From Escherichia phage vB_EcoM_swi3: 52,782 nt of DNA. The stretch lies in sequence record MT768059.1. One strand, given 5' to 3'. The position numbers and the translations under genes were made by a program. A model generated the notes under the pieces. It had not been told where the DNA came from. It ran no database searches and was given only the letters and a program-made list of their open reading frames with translations. This document shows, piece by piece, positions 3,754-44,527 of the stretch. Position 1 is the stretch's first letter. Every line of letters starts with the position of its first letter.

Positions 3754-3953
3754 AATAGTTACCTTTGTACTAGTTTCCAGGTGTGACTACTGTTACCAAT
3801 AGTCACTAGTTGAAACTACTACTTGTGTTACTATCAACAAGAAACATGTTACCAAATTGTTAAAGAGCAAAAGGTACCATTGACATCTACCAGATGTACC
3901 TGTTGACTGGTTAAGTACTACCTACCTAATCTAAACCATACCAATATCCTTTA

Positions 3954-3970
3954 GACCAGTTAGACTGGTC
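3954..3970. promoter_or_regulatory. perfect palindrome GACCAGT-TAG-ACTGGTC (putative operator)
   Basis: 7-bp arms with 3-bp spacer read directly; half-site GACTGGT recurs at 3905..3911. Confidence 0.4.
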
Positions 3971-4138
3971 AATCAGTCATCACATTCAATAAATATATAA
4001 TAGACCAATCGCTATTGATTGTACATAAAAGAATTGCAAGTTTATGCAAGTTTTTAGAAATGATAATCACTTGCGATTGATAGTGGTTCTCATATACAAT
4101 TGATATAGTTTCACATGTAATTATTCAACTCAAAATGG

Positions 4139-4370
4139 TCGGCAGGGGTTATAATAACATAGGGGTGCCACTTAAAGGAGCCGGCGAAATTATTTCTAAA
4201 AATATAATTTCAATCTGAATTATAGACGCTTTGTACTATAACGGCCGAAGTAGTTCACACGGTAATTGTACCAATCATAATAGTTACCAGAGTAATCATT
4301 TCAATTGAAATAGGTGCGGCGGGGGGTAATTTCGCAGGGGTGCTACCTGCCAGGAGCCAGCGGAATTTTT
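4139..4370. repeat. two copies of a ~57-bp GC-rich element, period ~176 bp
   Basis: 4139..4196 and 4315..4370 share GyCGGCrGGGG ... AGGGGTGCyAC ... AGGAGCCrGCGrAATT; flanked by AT-rich DNA. Confidence 0.5.
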
Positions 4371-4588
4371 TTATTTTTTGGTATTTTCTCCTTATCAGGA
4401 CCAATCATCATCAGAGTGATACGACAGGAGCTAACCTTTTGCCTAACACAATAATAAGTGAAGCCCCTCTAAAATTTTTTTATATTTTTCGGAAATTGTG
4501 TAGACACTCACTAAAAAGTGGTGTACTTTCTCTCCTCCACGCGCTATCATTAATGTGAATCATCAAACGGCCTCACGGTCTCCTACTT

Positions 4589-5086
4589 GTGGGTAACATT
4601 ATGAAAATTGTTCAATTAGAGCCATATCCGCCTCAATTGGCTATCGTTTGCAGCGAAAAAGAGCACGAAGAGCTCCAAAAACTGATGGATTTGCCTGATT
4701 TTGGCAACTGGAATGACCGAGAAACACGTACTGCATCTACCTTTACGTTCTCTCGCGTTAATTATCCGTACCTGTTAATTGTCGTCGAACTGTACCACCC
4801 GGACGACCTGAAGTACAACACCATTTCCCACGAAGGCATTCACGTAATGTCGTCGCTGATGAACTATGTTGGCCTTAAATACGACCCAGAAAACGATGAA
4901 TGGTACGCATATCAGCATGATTTCATCGTAAATGCCATTTGTAAGGCCCATGACGAGTACATTGAGCGCCAAAAAACGCCAAAAACTAAGCCAAAAATCG
5001 AAACAGGTAACCATCCTGCAATACTGCCACAAGACGTTATGAACTCGCTTTTGACTGACACTACTGGGGACTTTTTAGGTGATTAA
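4589..5086 (+). CDS. hypothetical protein with HExxH motif (possible small zinc metallopeptidase)
   Basis: 165 aa; motif ISHEGIHV; first gene of rightward block. Confidence 0.4.
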   Translation: MGNIMKIVQLEPYPPQLAIVCSEKEHEELQKLMDLPDFGNWNDRETRTASTFTFSRVNYPYLLIVVELYHPDDLKYNTISHEGIHVMSSLMNYVGLKYDPENDEWYAYQHDFIVNAICKAHDEYIERQKTPKTKPKIETGNHPAILPQDVMNSLLTDTTGDFLGD

Positions 5087-5753
5087 TATTATCTTTGCAA
5101 TGGGCCAAAATGGGGAATTCGGGTTATCTCCGGAGTTTATGAAGCATCAGGTTGACTCGTGCAAGACCATGGAAGAGGTTCGTGCACTTCCTAAATCGGG
5201 TCTACCCTGGAAATGTCAGTCAGACATGCTCTTTTTCAGGACTATGACTAATTCAATTGCGACAGAACCAGGCTATAATGCATATCAGCAACTACGTGGA
5301 CAATTCCCAAATGACCAGTTGCGAAACATGATAGCAGATGTAACGGTAAAAATGGTCGGACATAGTGTATTGTTAGCCGGTCGTAAAACGTATATGACTA
5401 TGAGTCTGCCTATGTCAGCCCACAGAATACTGCTGCCGGTATCTCGCCAGATTATGGCTTCAGAAGGCTACAATAATCTGGGTGAGATGGCCGCAGACCT
5501 TGAGTCCAGAGGTACTGACGTCTGGATTGTAGGGGGTGCCGAGTTGATACTTTCGGCCCTTGAAGAACACGCAAAAGACTTACTCCGTATCGACAACATG
5601 TTTATCAGTACGATCAAGCAATCAGGTCCAAGTGATATTTTAATGGATTGTAGCAAATTAATGATGTACATTGATAGCGACTTCACTTATAATGATGAAT
5701 ATGTTGATAACAAACAAGTGCTGATACAACGCTACAGGAGTTTACACAAATGA
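5079..5753 (+). CDS. dihydrofolate reductase-like protein
   Basis: 224 aa; LPW, GRKTY and VGGAEL blocks match DHFR conserved blocks (compare E. coli FolA, T4 Frd), with insertions; GTG start. Confidence 0.65.
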   Translation: MINIIFAMGQNGEFGLSPEFMKHQVDSCKTMEEVRALPKSGLPWKCQSDMLFFRTMTNSIATEPGYNAYQQLRGQFPNDQLRNMIADVTVKMVGHSVLLAGRKTYMTMSLPMSAHRILLPVSRQIMASEGYNNLGEMAADLESRGTDVWIVGGAELILSALEEHAKDLLRIDNMFISTIKQSGPSDILMDCSKLMMYIDSDFTYNDEYVDNKQVLIQRYRSLHK

Positions 5754-6256
5754 ACATCATAATCGAGGGGCCCGACAATGCTGGTAAAAGTACACTTATT
5801 GAGTTCCTTAAATCTCGTACTGGCCGCGATGTTATTCATAATACTGTTGATAAAGACCCCGAATCGGTCATGGCTAAACAGGCCAAAGAAAACGCGTTGG
5901 AAGGCAATTGCATTTATGACCGTAGCGCTGTTATATCTGAGTATATCTATTGTCTGGTTCTTCAACGTACGCCTGTCATCAATATTAATGTATCACATGT
6001 AGCAGATATGTGTGACAACGCCATCGTTATCTTTTGTATGCCACCTGTTGAAAAGGTACTGGCAACTACAAAAGACGAGATGCCTGGTGTTGTGGAAAAT
6101 CTTGAGGCGTTATACAATCAGTATGACAACCTCATTGACGAGCTGGTTATGATGAGTAAGCAGTTCTTCATTTACGACTGGACTGTTGAAGAAGACGGTC
6201 CTGAAGCAGTTCTCGAATATATCAACGAACGTATTAATAAGGAGTGGAACAAATGA
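5750..6256 (+). CDS. thymidylate kinase-like dNMP kinase
   Basis: 168 aa; P-loop IIIEGPDNAGKST and YDRS motif as in Tmk (IVIEGLEGAGKTT / DRH). Confidence 0.7.
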   Translation: MNIIIEGPDNAGKSTLIEFLKSRTGRDVIHNTVDKDPESVMAKQAKENALEGNCIYDRSAVISEYIYCLVLQRTPVININVSHVADMCDNAIVIFCMPPVEKVLATTKDEMPGVVENLEALYNQYDNLIDELVMMSKQFFIYDWTVEEDGPEAVLEYINERINKEWNK

Positions 6257-34548: not shown

Positions 34549-36516
34549 TTAGTGTGCCTCTGCCCAGTTACTTTCTATCTTAGCATCAGTAAGAACAGGT
34601 ACACGAAGCGGTAGTACAGTTTCCATGACCCGTACGAAATCATAGAATCCATCTTCTGCTTGCTTACCAGTTGGTAGAGAGAAGTTAAGCTCATCGTGTA
34701 CCGTCAGGCGAGGTACGCCAATCACGTCAAAGTAACCGTCTTCATACCCTTTCAGCATTGCAGACTTCATCTGGTCTGCTGACGACCCTTGCAGCACTCG
34801 GTTGATTGCTTTGTGGGTGTCTGCCAGTTTAATGTTTGGACCATACTCCTGACGTGCTTCTTCAAATGGTAAAGGCGTCTTCCCGAATCCACCACGTTTT
34901 GGTACCCATTTGTTGAACCACGTCTTCCGGCCCATAAATGTTTCTACATACCCCTGGCTATAACATAAATCTTCATAATGCTTCATGGTAGCACCAATGA
35001 ATGGTGCACCCTGATGGTACGCCTTCAGAACAGGTTCTGCTTCTTCAGGCGTCATTGCTAACTTACGGGCAAGAGCATTAAGCATCATGCCGTACAACAA
35101 ACCAAAGTTGATGGTCTTAGCCGGTTTACGCTCTATAACGTGACCTGAGGCTTCCTTGATAATATCGACCATAACATTGTGGTAATCTGCTTCCGGGTTA
35201 GCCGCGAAAATTGCTCGTAACTCATCAGCGCCCGGGCCGACTGCAAAATGCGCCATGAATCGATATTCAATTTGGGCGTAGTCTGCTGATCCCCATCTGT
35301 GTCCGACATCCGGTACGAAACAAGCACGAAGGAGTGGTCCCAGTATTTTGTGTCGAGACGGTATATTCTGCAGATTAGGGTCAGATGAGCTAAACCTACC
35401 ACTAACGGTTCCGCCGTCATCACCGCGCATTTGATGGAATTGACCGTGAAGGAAGCCATTTGTATTCATCCCCAATATATAGCCACGAATAAACGTGGAC
35501 TGGATTTTCTCATAAGACTTAATTTCAGACACCAGTTCCGCAAACGGATGGTGCAAGCCTGCTAAGAAGTCTGCCGTAAACGATGGATTGCCCGCCGCTG
35601 TTCTGAAGTACTCCAGACCTAAATGGTCAAATGCAAGAGCTAAGTCCGGACCTGAGTTAACGTTAATGTTAAAACCAATCTGGTCTTTAATCTGCTGGTG
35701 CATTTTCCTTATTTCAGCGCTAAGCGTATCATCCGCCTCTTTGGCTTTGTCAAGGTCAACACGCACACCTGCAAAACGCATCTTAAGCATTAATGGAATA
35801 AGCTTGCACTCCATATAGAATACGTCTGTTAAACACCAGCGACTTAACAATGGCCACTGGGCTTTGATAATGTGTATTGGTAAGTCGGCGTCAGATTCAG
35901 CATAGTAACCCACAAGACGAGGAGGCGTTTTGTAGATGTACTTTCTGGCTTCACCTGTTGGCTTACAGCCATAAGCATCTGAAATCCATTGGTACATCTC
36001 GGCTGAGTCTTTACCTTCGCCTACATACTTTCGTCCAAGTCCTTCAAGTGCAACACGCGCGCCTGGGTCGAGTAATGCTTCCGCGAATTGTACATCCATG
36101 CACAATCCTTTAACTTCCACGCCTTCTGCTGCAAGCCAGCCCAAGTCATATGTGATGTTAGCACCGACTTTAACTTGGTTAGGTCGCGAGAGTTCGAGCC
36201 GAAGCCAACCAAGTACTTCCTCAGCTGGAAGGTTATCCTCTTCGCCGAGCTCGTGTCTGATTGGGTAGTAAGCTTTGAAGCCGTTGTCCGTAGCGATACT
36301 AACTCCAACGATATGACCCTCCCTCCTGGCCCAACCACTACCATTTGTATCCATCCCTGGGTCGTATGTTTCACAGTCAAGACCGATAATCTTTGCAGAA
36401 GACAAGTCCGGGTAATGCGCGCGCGGCCGCCATCCAGTATCCCTGACGTATGGTATAGGACGGTTGATAGGTTTAACATTCTTTGCACCTTCGAAGCTAT
36501 CGAATAAAAAGCTCAT
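34549..36516 (-). CDS. DNA polymerase, family A, with 3'-5' exonuclease domain
   Basis: 655 aa; exo motif GLDCETYDP; Pol A motif A DYAQIEYR, motif B RKPAKTINFGLLYGM, motif C VHDEL. Confidence 0.9.
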   Translation of the reverse strand: MSFLFDSFEGAKNVKPINRPIPYVRDTGWRPRAHYPDLSSAKIIGLDCETYDPGMDTNGSGWARREGHIVGVSIATDNGFKAYYPIRHELGEEDNLPAEEVLGWLRLELSRPNQVKVGANITYDLGWLAAEGVEVKGLCMDVQFAEALLDPGARVALEGLGRKYVGEGKDSAEMYQWISDAYGCKPTGEARKYIYKTPPRLVGYYAESDADLPIHIIKAQWPLLSRWCLTDVFYMECKLIPLMLKMRFAGVRVDLDKAKEADDTLSAEIRKMHQQIKDQIGFNINVNSGPDLALAFDHLGLEYFRTAAGNPSFTADFLAGLHHPFAELVSEIKSYEKIQSTFIRGYILGMNTNGFLHGQFHQMRGDDGGTVSGRFSSSDPNLQNIPSRHKILGPLLRACFVPDVGHRWGSADYAQIEYRFMAHFAVGPGADELRAIFAANPEADYHNVMVDIIKEASGHVIERKPAKTINFGLLYGMMLNALARKLAMTPEEAEPVLKAYHQGAPFIGATMKHYEDLCYSQGYVETFMGRKTWFNKWVPKRGGFGKTPLPFEEARQEYGPNIKLADTHKAINRVLQGSSADQMKSAMLKGYEDGYFDVIGVPRLTVHDELNFSLPTGKQAEDGFYDFVRVMETVLPLRVPVLTDAKIESNWAEAH

Positions 36517-37541: not shown

Positions 37542-38426
37542 TTATACGGCCATTTGGAGTTTGATGTTTGGCATTGGTTTGTACTTCTCAACCATTGGCG
37601 TAACATCGGCAGGAGTGAAGTCAAACACTGACACGTCATAAATTGCATTAATGTCAGGACGACCTTCAAAGTTAGTGTCCAGTGTAGTATCAGAATTGCT
37701 TACGATACGTTGCAGGAAAATCTTTGCCGCATCGATATGATTCTGATAGATGTGATAATCACCCAGCGTAACAGTCATATCACCTACCCCAGTACCCAGC
37801 TCAGCAGCAATGGTAATCTGCAACATCTGATGCAACAGAATATCGTGAGGCAGACCAAGGATAACATCCGCGCTACGCATGTGGAACATCAGCTCTAATT
37901 CATTACGGTTGTTAATGAACAGCTGAAAACCATGGTAACAAGGCGGAAGGGCCATGGCGTCCATCTCTTGTGGGTTCCATGCCGTAATGTATGCCCGGCG
38001 GTCAGTAGGCTTAACCTTCAGCGTTTCAATAACGTCTTTAAGCTGGTTAGTAAGAACACCATTCTTATAGAATGGCTTAATCCATTGCACGCCGTACACA
38101 GGACCTAAGTCACGATTGTCTGGTGTACCCCAACGTTTGTTTGCATCCTGCAGGTTACCTTCCCACCAGTTGCAGCCAAAGCCTTTGAGTGTGTCGACGT
38201 TTGAAATGCCGTTGATAAAGCAGTAAAGCTCAGCAGCAACAGCTTTGATGTTAACAGGTTTAAATACCGGCACCATCAGTTTGTTGTCGTTAAAAGCCAG
38301 CTTAAACGCTGTACCAAAACAACGGCGTGTACCAACACCTGTACGGTCTACAACATCCTCGCCTTTACGCAGGATAAAAGAAATGATGTCGCTGTAAAGA
38401 GAATCGACAGTGCTGTATGTTTTCAT
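37542..38426 (-). CDS. thymidylate synthase-family enzyme with Asp at uracil-specifying position (putative dCMP C5-hydroxymethylase or -methyltransferase)
   Basis: 294 aa; DRTGVGT, DLGPVYG, catalytic-Cys motif ALPPCY, RSADVILGLPHD, GDYHIYQNH; ThyA N177 equivalent is D195 (codon at 37842..37844). Confidence 0.8.
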   Translation of the reverse strand: MKTYSTVDSLYSDIISFILRKGEDVVDRTGVGTRRCFGTAFKLAFNDNKLMVPVFKPVNIKAVAAELYCFINGISNVDTLKGFGCNWWEGNLQDANKRWGTPDNRDLGPVYGVQWIKPFYKNGVLTNQLKDVIETLKVKPTDRRAYITAWNPQEMDAMALPPCYHGFQLFINNRNELELMFHMRSADVILGLPHDILLHQMLQITIAAELGTGVGDMTVTLGDYHIYQNHIDAAKIFLQRIVSNSDTTLDTNFEGRPDINAIYDVSVFDFTPADVTPMVEKYKPMPNIKLQMAV

Positions 38427-39019
38427 TAAAACAGTTCCTTTTGAGCCGGGTTAACGTGTGCGTCGATGATGGCCTGGATGTCAGGTGCTTTCCATCCTTC
38501 AGGCTTAACAATATCCTGACCAGACTTATGCTTGCTGTTGCTTGCATCAGGCTTAGCGCGTTCTTTCGCCATGTTAGCAGCCTGTACAGCATCCCATGCT
38601 GCGTCAAGTGGCCAGTTGTTGTTTGCACACCAGGTAATCAGGTGGATAATTAACTGGGCCAGACGGTCGCAATGAGTGTCTTCAGTATCCTTAACGTATA
38701 CAATAAGGCCATCAGCATCGAAACGGTCCATAAATCCGCATGGCGTAGTTAACAGAATAGGATACTCAAATTCGTTGGTGAACCATGCAGTCTGGTCATA
38801 CAGGTATAACGTACCTGCAGCGATGTAAATTAAATCTACAATACCGTCTAAGAATCCAGCTTTATCGCCGTCCTTCTTAGCTTGTTTAATTTCTTCCATC
38901 TCCTCAATAAGACGGTCGTAGCGAAGCTTGAACTCAGGTTTACCGCCTTGACTAACAGGCTTGAGGTCAAACTTCTCATGAAAAGCGGTAACGCCTGCAG
39001 CAATTTTACTGAATCGCAT
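38426..39019 (-). CDS. putative MazG-like (all-alpha) nucleoside triphosphate pyrophosphohydrolase
   Basis: ~197 aa from ATG at 39019 after GGAG; EExxE motif (LIEEMEEI) and downstream acidic helix (DGIVDLIY). Confidence 0.45.
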   Translation of the reverse strand: MRFSKIAAGVTAFHEKFDLKPVSQGGKPEFKLRYDRLIEEMEEIKQAKKDGDKAGFLDGIVDLIYIAAGTLYLYDQTAWFTNEFEYPILLTTPCGFMDRFDADGLIVYVKDTEDTHCDRLAQLIIHLITWCANNNWPLDAAWDAVQAANMAKERAKPDASNSKHKSGQDIVKPEGWKAPDIQAIIDAHVNPAQKELF

Positions 39020-42590: not shown

Positions 42591-43469
42591 TTATTTTAAG
42601 GAAAGTTTAACGGGCTTCTCATCCTGCGGGAAGACATCAGCAGGGCGATAATCATCACAAGCTGCTAATTGCTCTTCGATTGTTTCGAGTTCTTTCTGGT
42701 GCTTGTTGCAATACCACACTTTGCCCTGAAGCGGTTTACTGTAATGGCAGGTTCTGCAGTTCCTGTCTGGCATTGCCCCTTTGTGGCACAGGTGATGGTA
42801 TTCGCACATCCCTGGTTTGCACTCCCACCAAATAGGCGATTCAGAAATCTTCGGCATATCCAAACCAGATTCCGCATATACAACAGCCTCCGCTTTACTC
42901 AGTTGTATGTCGCTTTCCAGTAAGTCAATCTCGACCACTTCAAAATACATCTCGTCAGTGTTCTTATTGATTGCAATGTACACAGCTTGATTCAGCTTAA
43001 GCTTCCGCATGTATACCTGCATCTGGGCGTAGTGTACCGGCTTACTTGCTTTAACAGACTTGAGCTTGACTAACTCCTTAAACGACTTATCGCCATGCGT
43101 CTTGAACTCAGCAAGTGCCCATACGCCTTTGTATTTAATTACACAGTCACAAGACCCAGAGAAGATGTCATTGAATTCGTGTATGCGCCACTGCTTACCA
43201 GTCTTGGGATTGACGTCCAGCACTTCGTCACATACGGTGCGAAGCCACTTTACAATTCTGCTTTCTTCAAGGTTACCACGTTCAAACAGACGAAGTTGCT
43301 TAGCCGAAAACTTCTCCTTGAACGACCAGTGCAGAACGTGCCAAAGATAGCGATAGCAGTTGTGTCCTATCTGCGATGCTCCAAGATGCCCGCGTCGTTC
43401 TTCTCTTTCGTGGGCTTCGACTATCTTGATGTCAATACGTTTCTGCAGGTCGTCAAACGGACTTGGCAT
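42591..43469 (-). CDS. PD-(D/E)XK nuclease, Cas4/RecB-like, with C-terminal Cys cluster
   Basis: Start at ATG 43469 after GGAG; motif D ... EFK (DCVIKYKGVWALAEFK); C-terminal CKPGMCEYHHLCHK ... CRTCH. Confidence 0.55.
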   Translation of the reverse strand: MPSPFDDLQKRIDIKIVEAHEREERRGHLGASQIGHNCYRYLWHVLHWSFKEKFSAKQLRLFERGNLEESRIVKWLRTVCDEVLDVNPKTGKQWRIHEFNDIFSGSCDCVIKYKGVWALAEFKTHGDKSFKELVKLKSVKASKPVHYAQMQVYMRKLKLNQAVYIAINKNTDEMYFEVVEIDLLESDIQLSKAEAVVYAESGLDMPKISESPIWWECKPGMCEYHHLCHKGAMPDRNCRTCHYSKPLQGKVWYCNKHQKELETIEEQLAACDDYRPADVFPQDEKPVKLSLK

Positions 43470-43938
43470 TGTTAAACTCCTCAACGCTGAATTCATCGTA
43501 TACAATATTATGTGCCCACAAATGGGCGACGGCATTTGCCATACTGTCTTTCCATTTGGATTGTGAAGCTGTATGAGCCAATGCAACTACCCGAACCAGG
43601 TTAAGGTTGGCTATCAGCATATCTGCACAATGTTCGCACGGCGGGTAGGTTATGTAGATGGTAACCGGGCCTAATGAAGGAGTGTCTAACTCTCTCCTTA
43701 TATTAGCTAAGGTGTTTATCTCGCTATGAATAGTTAGAGCGTTCTTAAGGCTATTAGGCACTATTCTTATAGAGTCTAACTGCGTAGGCAGACCATTATA
43801 TCCAGTGGAAATAATACGCTTGTTCTGGTCCACAAGAACGCTACCGACTTGACGTTTCGGGTCCTTCGACCAGCTCGCAACTTCACAAGCTATGCGCATA
43901 AACCGCCTGTCCCACTTGTCCATCTTCTTCTTTTGCAT
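43453..43938 (-). CDS. dCMP deaminase
   Basis: 161 aa; zinc-binding HSE and PCEHC motifs of CMP/dCMP deaminases. Confidence 0.8.
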   Translation of the reverse strand: MQKKKMDKWDRRFMRIACEVASWSKDPKRQVGSVLVDQNKRIISTGYNGLPTQLDSIRIVPNSLKNALTIHSEINTLANIRRELDTPSLGPVTIYITYPPCEHCADMLIANLNLVRVVALAHTASQSKWKDSMANAVAHLWAHNIVYDEFSVEEFNNAKSV

Positions 43939-43999
43939 GGTAGTCTCCGTATACGAAAATAGGGGCCGAAGCCCCTATTGAATATCTACTCGGCAGGGA

Positions 44000-44527
44000 T
44001 TATTCTTCCCAAGGAGCTGCTGCACCATCGTCAGCACCAGGTGCCGTTGCAGTAGCACTCGCACCTGCACCTACTTTCTTCGTCGTCGATGCAGTTGCTT
44101 GAGAATGACCACCTACTGCAGTAGTTGCTTCAGTTGACGCTTTGTATTCGCGAATATCGTTTTGTGGGTCGTACTCACCGGTCTTGTCGATACGAACACC
44201 AACTTTACCAGCTACAATACGGTTTTCCAGTAAGTCGGTAGAAGTCAGTTCAACAATACCCAGCGCACGACACAACGCAGACAGTTTGCGATGACCGATT
44301 TCAACAGCTTGTGCATTAGGGTTGGAGTAGGTAATCATGTCAAATACAACACGGTTAGCGAACTCACCTTCCTGCACTTTCAGACGCAGGGACAGGTAAG
44401 AACCAGTGCCTGCTTTAGTCGGCTTCAGCTCAACCTCTTCAATCATGAAGTTGTACCAGCCTTTCGGGATCGGGTCAAAAGACTGTTGCGGTTCGACGGT
44501 AGAGCTGTTGAAGTTTAATTCAGCCAT
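44000..44527 (-). CDS. putative single-stranded DNA-binding protein
   Basis: 175 aa; Ala/Thr/Gly-rich flexible C-terminal region ending in acidic residues; adjacent to Sak4-like ATPase. Confidence 0.35.
   Translation of the reverse strand: MAELNFNSSTVEPQQSFDPIPKGWYNFMIEEVELKPTKAGTGSYLSLRLKVQEGEFANRVVFDMITYSNPNAQAVEIGHRKLSALCRALGIVELTSTDLLENRIVAGKVGVRIDKTGEYDPQNDIREYKASTEATTAVGGHSQATASTTKKVGAGASATATAPGADDGAAAPWEE

Follow-up and report, generated by a model that had tools for sequence, protein, structure and literature searches.

The 52,782-nucleotide stretch of Escherichia phage vB_EcoM_swi3 analyzed here (sequence record MT768059.1; the window) encodes a single-domain, zinc-dependent deaminase of the deoxycytidylate (dCMP) deaminase (DCTD) family. 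This enzyme probably acts after the phage's own thymidylate synthase (TS) homolog, converting 5-methyldeoxycytidine (5-methyl-dC) nucleotides to thymidine nucleotides, and not before the host thymidylate synthase ThyA; both routes may operate. We put at about 0.5 the probability that making thymidine nucleotides downstream of the TS homolog is its main role. Taken alone, the deaminase is an ordinary gene, already annotated in relatives. Support for the proposed role comes from a single, cytosine-type TS homolog, from a gene set like that of the Xanthomonas phage XP12, and from a conserved synteny between the deaminase and TS genes.

The gene product (Table 1) is a member of the zinc DCTD family in both fold and catalytic residues. 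The initial annotation had named it a dCMP deaminase from its HSE and PCEHC motifs, and domain, family, and fold searches agreed. Its ATG start has a GGAG 7 nucleotides to the 5' side, and the translation contains the sequence T-I-H71-S72-E73-I-N75, which supplies the catalytic glutamate and a zinc-binding histidine in an HxE motif, and the sequence P100-C101-E102-H103-C104, which supplies the PCxxC zinc ligands; none of the glutamate and cysteine ligands (E73, C101, and C104) is missing. The nucleotide/allosteric-site motif G(Y/W)N(A/G), as defined in PMC12088426, is intact as G46-Y47-N48-G49, which answers a question raised with the initial annotation. The match to the Pfam family PF00383 (dCMP_cyt_deam_1) had an E value of 2.4e-21 and 76 bits against a cutoff of 25, and that to PHROG 174, “dCMP deaminase,” an E value of 1e-37, both far beyond chance. 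Among PDB sequences searched with phmmer, the bifunctional dCMP/dCTP deaminase (bi-DCD) of PBCV-1 (7fh4) came first, at 2.2e-11, and human DCTD (2w4l) had a value of 1.4e-10; they were followed by the Streptococcus mutans dCMP deaminase, T4 Cd, and the enzyme of cyanophage S-TIM5. An AlphaFold2 model built on 33 homologs had a mean pLDDT of 91.5, and in a Foldseek search of the PDB its first 15 matches were all dCMP deaminases (7fh4 at 3.5e-12 and 2w4l at 4.7e-13, with a TM score of about 0.72), with cytosine deaminase, TadA, CDA, and APOBEC structures ranked below all of them. These two best solved-structure matches share about 24 to 25% identity with the window protein in the Foldseek structural alignments, and they differ from it in coming from algal-virus and cellular contexts with canonical DNA.

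Conservation among homologs follows the same residues. H71, E73, C104, G46, N48, G49, and N75 are invariant in 139 of 139 deaminase homologs; Y47 is near-invariant, with Phe or His in some, and so is C101, replaced by Ser in one sequence alone. That sequence, P0001, is a metagenomic homolog 169 amino acids long and 92% identical to the window protein, and it represents an assembly error or else a copy that has been inactivated. Two other identities were considered and set aside. A tRNA or cytidine deaminase, the alternative named in the initial annotation, was ruled out by a score of 27 bits against a cutoff of 150 for the NCBIfam TadA model, as well as by the lower fold ranks of TadA, CDA, and cytosine deaminase. 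An antiphage dCTP deaminase was ruled out as well: the PADLOC and NCBIfam matches span about 43 residues around GYNG and reflect shared domain similarity, not membership.

The initial annotation was also correct that the window encodes a cytosine-type TS homolog (Table 1), for the protein reads RSADVILGLPHD, with Asp at the position of Asn177 in Escherichia coli ThyA, which served as the alignment reference after its sequence was checked against PDB 1AOB. Its description of the deaminase as encoded alongside this homolog held in part: the two genes share a strand and are syntenic in relatives, but they are 5 kb apart and not directly adjacent. Many ThyA residues are kept (R21, E58, W80, W83, Y94, R126/R127, Cys146, R166, Asp169, H207, and Y209), as are Leu143 and a TS-like C terminus ending in MAV, while three positions are changed, His147 to Tyr, Phe176 to His, and Asn177 to Asp. 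Position 177 decides the substrate, Asn for dUMP and Asp for dCMP (PMC8670742); position 143 is hydrophobic in enzymes that transfer a methyl group, hydroxymethylases such as T4 gp42 and MilA carry an acidic residue there, and Asn169 marks the flavin-dependent 5-hydroxy-dCMP synthases (PMC13326640). The signature of a dCMP methyltransferase, comprising Cys146, Asp177, a nonacidic residue at 143 (Leu), and Asp rather than Asn at 169, is thus complete, and because Leu143, Asp169, and Asp177 fall under these published residue rules, the protein is predicted to be a dCMP C5-methyltransferase. In the same alignment T4 gp42 has Asp143, and the known dCMP methylase of XP12 has Asn143.

A database search placed this TS homolog in a clade of its own, with 31 cluster representatives at 50% identity or more, mostly on phage-sized contigs of 34 to 54 kb; outside the clade, identity falls sharply to 37% or less, the level of ordinary ThyA. 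The residues L-Y-D-H-D occupy positions 143/147/169/176/177 in 29 of the 31 members, and L-H-D-F-N occupies them in all 89 of the 89 next-best homologs. By these alignments the window-type lineage is separate from the XP12-type TS (28% identity), which has Asn143, Pro147, and Tyr176 where the window lineage has Leu143, Tyr147, and His176, and also from the gp42-type TS. Two members of the clade, P0068 and P0075, carry Asn177 on the Tyr147/His176 scaffold, with the sequences LGLPHNIVFHQ and ALEPC, the latter in place of ALPPC; both lie on contigs of 1 to 1.6 kb, and they may have reverted naturally or may resemble ancestral intermediates between dUMP and dCMP specificity. Six-frame phmmer searches of the window turned up neither ThyX nor a further TS or deaminase, leaving this homolog as its only TS.

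The pathway that we favor would begin with an all-alpha nucleotide pyrophosphohydrolase of the PRA-PH/MazG type, whose gene lies directly upstream of the TS gene, the stop and start sharing one base. This enzyme is inferred to be a dCTP pyrophosphatase that supplies dCMP and keeps cytosine out of DNA. The Asp177/Leu143 TS homolog would then convert dCMP to 5-methyl-dCMP with release of dihydrofolate, which a divergent dihydrofolate reductase (DHFR)-like protein of the phage would recycle. A phage protein resembling deoxynucleoside monophosphate and thymidylate kinases, inferred to phosphorylate modified dCMP and/or dTMP, would act with the host nucleoside diphosphate kinase to raise 5-methyl-dCMP to the triphosphate for incorporation, giving virion DNA with 5-methylcytosine (5mC) in place of cytosine. 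The deaminase would draw on the 5-methyl-dC nucleotide pool, as monophosphates or triphosphates, and turn part of it into dTMP or dTTP; it would thereby set the ratio of 5mC to thymine precursors and free the dTTP supply from host Dcd and ThyA. Some activity from dCMP to dUMP may coexist. DCTDs generally accept 5-methyl-dCMP (PMC12088426), and therefore, once the TS homolog makes this nucleotide, some flux to dTMP would be expected even from an unselective deaminase.

The precedent is XP12, which replaces all cytosine with 5mC and whose deaminase is reported in PMC12088426, citing Wang & Ehrlich 1982 and Kuo et al. 1982, to convert 5-methyl-dCTP to dTTP in a host-independent thymidylate synthesis. 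The XP12 enzyme (QNN97213) is the closest characterized relative of the window deaminase, with 34% identity over the full length, an E value of 9e-24, and 78 bits; both are single-domain DCTD-type proteins of about 160 amino acids with HxE, PCxxC, GYNG, and [KR]W motifs, and the window protein has a basic pattern (K28/R29, K40/R41, and K128) resembling that of XP12, considered as a possible hint of triphosphate binding. Neither phage has a canonical TS; each encodes a single Asp177 TS homolog along with a DHFR and a nucleotide hydrolase, and the window DHFR-like protein has weak similarity to that of XP12. The arrangements differ. In XP12 the genes form one operon, from hydrolase to TS(Asp177) to deaminase to DHFR, whereas in the window they are scattered over 38 to 39 kb, 43.5 kb, and 5 to 6 kb; where the window phage has a PRA-PH enzyme, XP12 has a HAD hydrolase. 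XP12 also differs in its Xanthomonas host and siphovirus morphology, and in having a deaminase of documented activity.

A metaviromic preprint (bioRxiv 10.1101/2024.12.05.627091) supplies a second comparison. In that work, 70% of the dCMP deaminase genes on cytosine-modified contigs lay within 3 kb of a TS gene, a share that fell to 6% on unmodified contigs; the neighboring TS genes were mostly of the cytosine type, many of the deaminases preferred 5mC, and deaminases encoded in cis with TS homologs that make 5-methyl-dCMP were frequently 5mC selective by experiment. One such enzyme, mSCD-B5, converted 99% of 5-methyl-dCTP in 30 min as against 4% of dCTP and was inactive on both monophosphates. 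The usual neighbors of the 5mC-selective deaminases were PRA-PH and family A DNA polymerase genes (10.1101/2024.12.05.627091). The likeness to the window, drawn from published descriptions, extends to the annotation of the mSCD proteins as dCMP deaminases (PF00383 and PF14437), to their length of about 154 amino acids (154 for mSCD-B5), and to the PBCV-1 deaminase, which is both the closest PDB structure to mSCD-B5 and the best PDB sequence match of the window deaminase. It extends also to the linked genes for an Asp177 TS, a PRA-PH enzyme, and a family A DNA polymerase. On the minus strand of the window, PolA (34549 to 36516) is followed by a clamp-like gene, the TS homolog, the PRA-PH gene, and then the deaminase gene, and the same module in the same order is found on the IMG/VR contig L057.

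The pairing of the two genes recurs in relatives. The window is essentially a whole 52.8-kb Rosemountvirus genome, near-complete, because the 8-kb region around the deaminase gene is 96.8% identical to that of BP63 (genus Rosemountvirus), where the ortholog is annotated “deoxycytidylate deaminase,” and 97 to 98% identical to those of complete genomes including Phage PEA2-3 and Salmonella phages Sz, LSE7621, 8-19, and PA13076, among others. The corresponding locus of the Loughboroughvirus SE4 shares both its synteny and its TS signature with the window. In five of five related genomes examined that have a window-type TS, at TS identities from 71% down to 50%, the deaminase and Asp177 TS genes were syntenic, even as the deaminases had diverged to 34 to 37% identity. 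In three of the five (L096:5691-6128, L097:5725-6174, and L098:5742-6194) GYNG is replaced by GFND and SKDPKR by SKQ-E, with the H/E/C/C residues kept, and nucleotide or effector binding may be altered in these proteins. Of 80 IMG/VR loci that carry deaminase homologs, 14 had a TS gene within 10 kb, and it carried Asp177 in 11. Two of the homologs from outside the Rosemountvirus and Loughboroughvirus clade (P0015, at 46% identity, and P0021, at 44%) sit in overlapping operons that run from PRA-PH through an XP12-type TS(Asp177) and the deaminase to a DHFR-like gene. A DHFR and a nucleotide (pyro)phosphohydrolase accompany the deaminase here, in XP12, and on contigs L086 and L088.

A published observation on the Loughboroughvirus S144 bears on the composition of the DNA. 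Of the enzymes tried on S144 DNA, SspI and PacI alone cut, at sites that contain no cytosine, and every tested site containing cytosine resisted; its authors considered cytosine probably modified and found no responsible genes (PMC7432712). Our literature search found no paper naming a DNA modification in Rosemountvirus or Loughboroughvirus, and one paper describes both genera as lacking an extensive nucleotide-modifying repertoire.

Several observations weigh against the reading that we favor. The GYNG motif, which in classical dCMP deaminases is associated with allostery by dCTP and dTTP, is intact in the deaminase, and E. coli and Salmonella have ThyA, so that a route from dCMP through dUMP to host ThyA is feasible. 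The resemblance of the TS homolog to that of XP12 stops at the 28% identity given above, and the rule for Leu143 is a correlation. The 5 kb between the deaminase and TS genes lie beyond the ±3-kb association window of the preprint, which also describes 5mC selectivity as polyphyletic and not predictable from sequence (10.1101/2024.12.05.627091). Homologs at a comparable distance can have other neighbors: P0026 adjoins ThyX, ribonucleotide reductase, and dUTPase, a canonical context, and P0009, P0029, and P0031 have no TS gene within 10 kb. In a neighbor-joining tree of 139 sequences the window deaminases sit on a long branch of their own, no sister group being firm, and phylogeny did not decide the substrate; this isolation agrees with the polyphyly stated in the preprint. 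A residue marker fared no better. W129 aligns with W121 of the PBCV-1 enzyme and W128 of the XP12 enzyme, where an aromatic residue is proposed to contact the C5-methyl group (PMC12088426), but most phage homologs keep this residue irrespective of TS context, and it was rejected as a marker of 5-methyl substrates.

The chief alternative, and the one put forward in the initial annotation, is a classical dCMP deaminase. The dCMP from the phage dCTP pyrophosphatase would be converted to dUMP and passed to host ThyA to make dTMP, the phage DHFR would help to recycle folate, and the TS homolog would serve cytosine modification alone. We consider this unlikely as the main role, with a chance that is far from negligible. 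It accords with the DCTD fold, the full complement of catalytic residues, and the intact GYNG motif, and the phage dCTPase would itself create exactly such a need for dUMP. To our knowledge, E. coli and Salmonella have no dCMP deaminase of their own and normally derive dUMP from dCTP, which also counts for this route. T4 offers a precedent, since its Cd supplies dUMP when dCTP is depleted, and the parallel drawn with T4 in the initial annotation was sound insofar as Cd shares the superfamily, the catalytic motifs, and GYNG with the window deaminase and coexists with an Asp177 TS homolog and a dCTPase-type enzyme. The likeness weakens beyond that point. Alignment to Cd recovered the same catalytic motifs at 25% identity and 36.6 bits, and the window deaminase lacks an insertion of about 40 amino acids that Cd carries between GYNG and HxE. 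This insertion holds a second, structural zinc site. T4 furthermore encodes a canonical (Asn177) TS, Td, together with frd, so that the dUMP made by Cd feeds Td and frd recycles the folate, whereas the window phage has no canonical TS. T4 makes 5-hydroxymethylcytosine (5hmC), and Cd must act on dCMP and avoid hydroxymethyl-dCMP because its deamination would give hydroxymethyl-dUMP. With a deamination branch, therefore, a 5mC phage could do without a second TS and a 5hmC phage could not.

Supply of dTMP through dUMP and host ThyA is accordingly feasible, as the initial annotation proposed, but the gene set matches that of XP12-type phages, in which dTTP comes from 5-methyl-dCTP, and this favors a place for the deaminase after the TS homolog. 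In the preprint, deamination of modified cytosine in vivo was seen in 7 of 90 tested candidates, a minority, which again speaks for the host route (10.1101/2024.12.05.627091). DCTDs also deaminate 5-methyl-dCMP, making a strict separation of the two routes unlikely, and deamination after the TS homolog and the route through host ThyA are not mutually exclusive.

A second alternative concerns the product of the TS homolog, which might be a dCMP hydroxymethylase or make some other C5 adduct; the deaminase would then avoid the modified nucleotide, as in the T-even phages, and host ThyA would give dTMP. Asp177 by itself leaves the product open, the Tyr147/His176/Asp177 triple signature is uncharacterized, and any C5 modification would be compatible with the resistance of S144 DNA to restriction. 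We nevertheless judge this improbable, given a Leu143 where T4 gp42 and MilA are acidic, the retention of TS-like closed-site features (W80, W83, Y94, and the C-terminal MAV), and a DHFR-like gene that fits methyl transfer with production of dihydrofolate. A Pfam search of 20 open reading frames (ORFs), which did not take in all the small ORFs, found no glycosyltransferase or other hydroxymethyl-dependent enzyme and no DNA methyltransferase.

It is more doubtful still that the TS homolog is bifunctional, methylating both dCMP and dUMP, with the deaminase feeding it dUMP and with neither host ThyA nor deamination of 5-methyl-dC being needed. The remaining active site is fully ThyA-like, and the Asn177 of P0068 and P0075 on an otherwise identical Tyr147/His176 scaffold suggests that uracil may be tolerated, but N177D/N229D mutants shift strongly to dCMP according to work cited in PMC8670742. 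Least probable is a deaminase acting on polynucleotides, to edit single-stranded DNA or host or competitor nucleic acid, for which one can point to weak AID/APOBEC-like Pfam matches (of which SNAD4, with E = 2.7e-07 and 31 bits, is the best) and to the deamination of 5mC in single-stranded DNA by mSCD-B5 in vitro (10.1101/2024.12.05.627091); that activity is slow (hours) and described as an in vitro property, the best sequence and structure matches are all mononucleotide dCMP deaminases, and the gene sits in a replication and nucleotide metabolism module.

A broader proposal can be made, which we hold tentatively and at a little short of even odds: that Rosemountvirus, Loughboroughvirus, and about 30 related uncultured phage lineages replace cytosine fully with 5mC by means of an independently evolved, ThyA-derived H147Y/F176H/N177D dCMP methylase, together with a 5mC-selective deaminase that makes thymidine nucleotides without host ThyA. 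Pathways of this type have been known since 1982 and were extended in 2024; what would be new is their occurrence in enterobacterial myoviruses and the uncharacterized ThyA-derived Asp177 lineage. It would be the first of its kind in E. coli and Salmonella phages, and 5mC substitution would account for the resistance of S144 to restriction. The phages would be predicted to be independent of host ThyA, their nanopore and bisulfite sequencing and cloning would be affected, and, being easily cultured, they could become a further source of 5mC-selective deaminases for sequencing methylomes. Phages of both genera have been widely isolated as candidates for biocontrol and therapy against Salmonella and E. 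coli.

Table 1. Deaminase, TS homolog, and other features of the window (positions counted from its first letter)
Feature	Position	Strand	Remarks
Deaminase ORF	43453..43938	minus	ATG start, 161 aa; zinc-dependent, dCMP-family (DCTD-type), single-domain; W129 a further key residue
TS homolog	37542..38426	minus	294 aa, cytosine-type; PF00303 2.3e-62
PRA-PH/MazG-like all-alpha nucleotide pyrophosphohydrolase	38426..39019	minus	PF01503 2.6e-7; PHROG 671 3.8e-25
Divergent DHFR-like protein	5079..5753	plus	224 aa; PF00186 9.5e-7, 29 bits, cutoff 25; PHROG 316 3.4e-26
P-loop dNMP/thymidylate-kinase-like protein	5750..6256	plus	168 aa; PHROG 761 3.7e-27
DUF669/single-stranded DNA-binding protein-like gene	44000..44527		precedes the deaminase gene, with a 61-nt spacer between
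GC-rich hairpin AAUAGGGGC-UUCG-GCCCCUAUU	43960..43985	minus	within the 61-nt spacer 43939..43999 before the deaminase start

Some details of these features deserve mention. The PRA-PH ORF reaches 39082, giving 218 amino acids from the first ATG, and the tabulated start at Met22 (39019) is the one annotated in BP63; it is backed by the annotations of both BP63 and SE4 and by relatives of 197 to 200 amino acids, and from it the gene overlaps an upstream gene of 132 amino acids by 14 nucleotides. The Pfam matches of the kinase-like protein, to dNK and Thymidylate_kin, do not reach the curated cutoffs. The hairpin ahead of the deaminase gene has a 9-bp GC-rich stem and a UUCG loop followed by UUUCG, with a folding energy of -19.2 kcal/mol and a z score of -2.2; a scan for consensus intrinsic terminators made no call there. 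At its other end, the last 17 nucleotides of the deaminase gene (43453 to 43469) overlap the probable start, an ATG at 43469, of a Cas4-like PD-(D/E)XK exonuclease gene. The mechanical ORF call extends this exonuclease as far as a TTG at 43586 that is unlikely to be the true start.

Restriction sites in the window were compared with a maximal-order Markov model. GATC was strongly depleted (28 observed against about 160 expected, z = -10.4) and GATATC was absent (14 expected); CCWGG, with 137 sites, and other GC-containing palindromes were not notably avoided. As a proxy for modification, site avoidance gave no clear signal: GC-containing and AT-only palindromes did not differ clearly, and only GATC and GATATC stood out. 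This pattern suggests that Dam/MutH- or GATC-targeting systems, against which a C5 modification might give no cover, exert selection. Finally, the region from 3754 to 4588 (about 830 bp) contains no ORF of at least 90 amino acids, and the equivalent stretch of BP63 has no annotated gene; the physical genome ends of S144 have been placed in the corresponding gap between gene clusters (PMC7432712).

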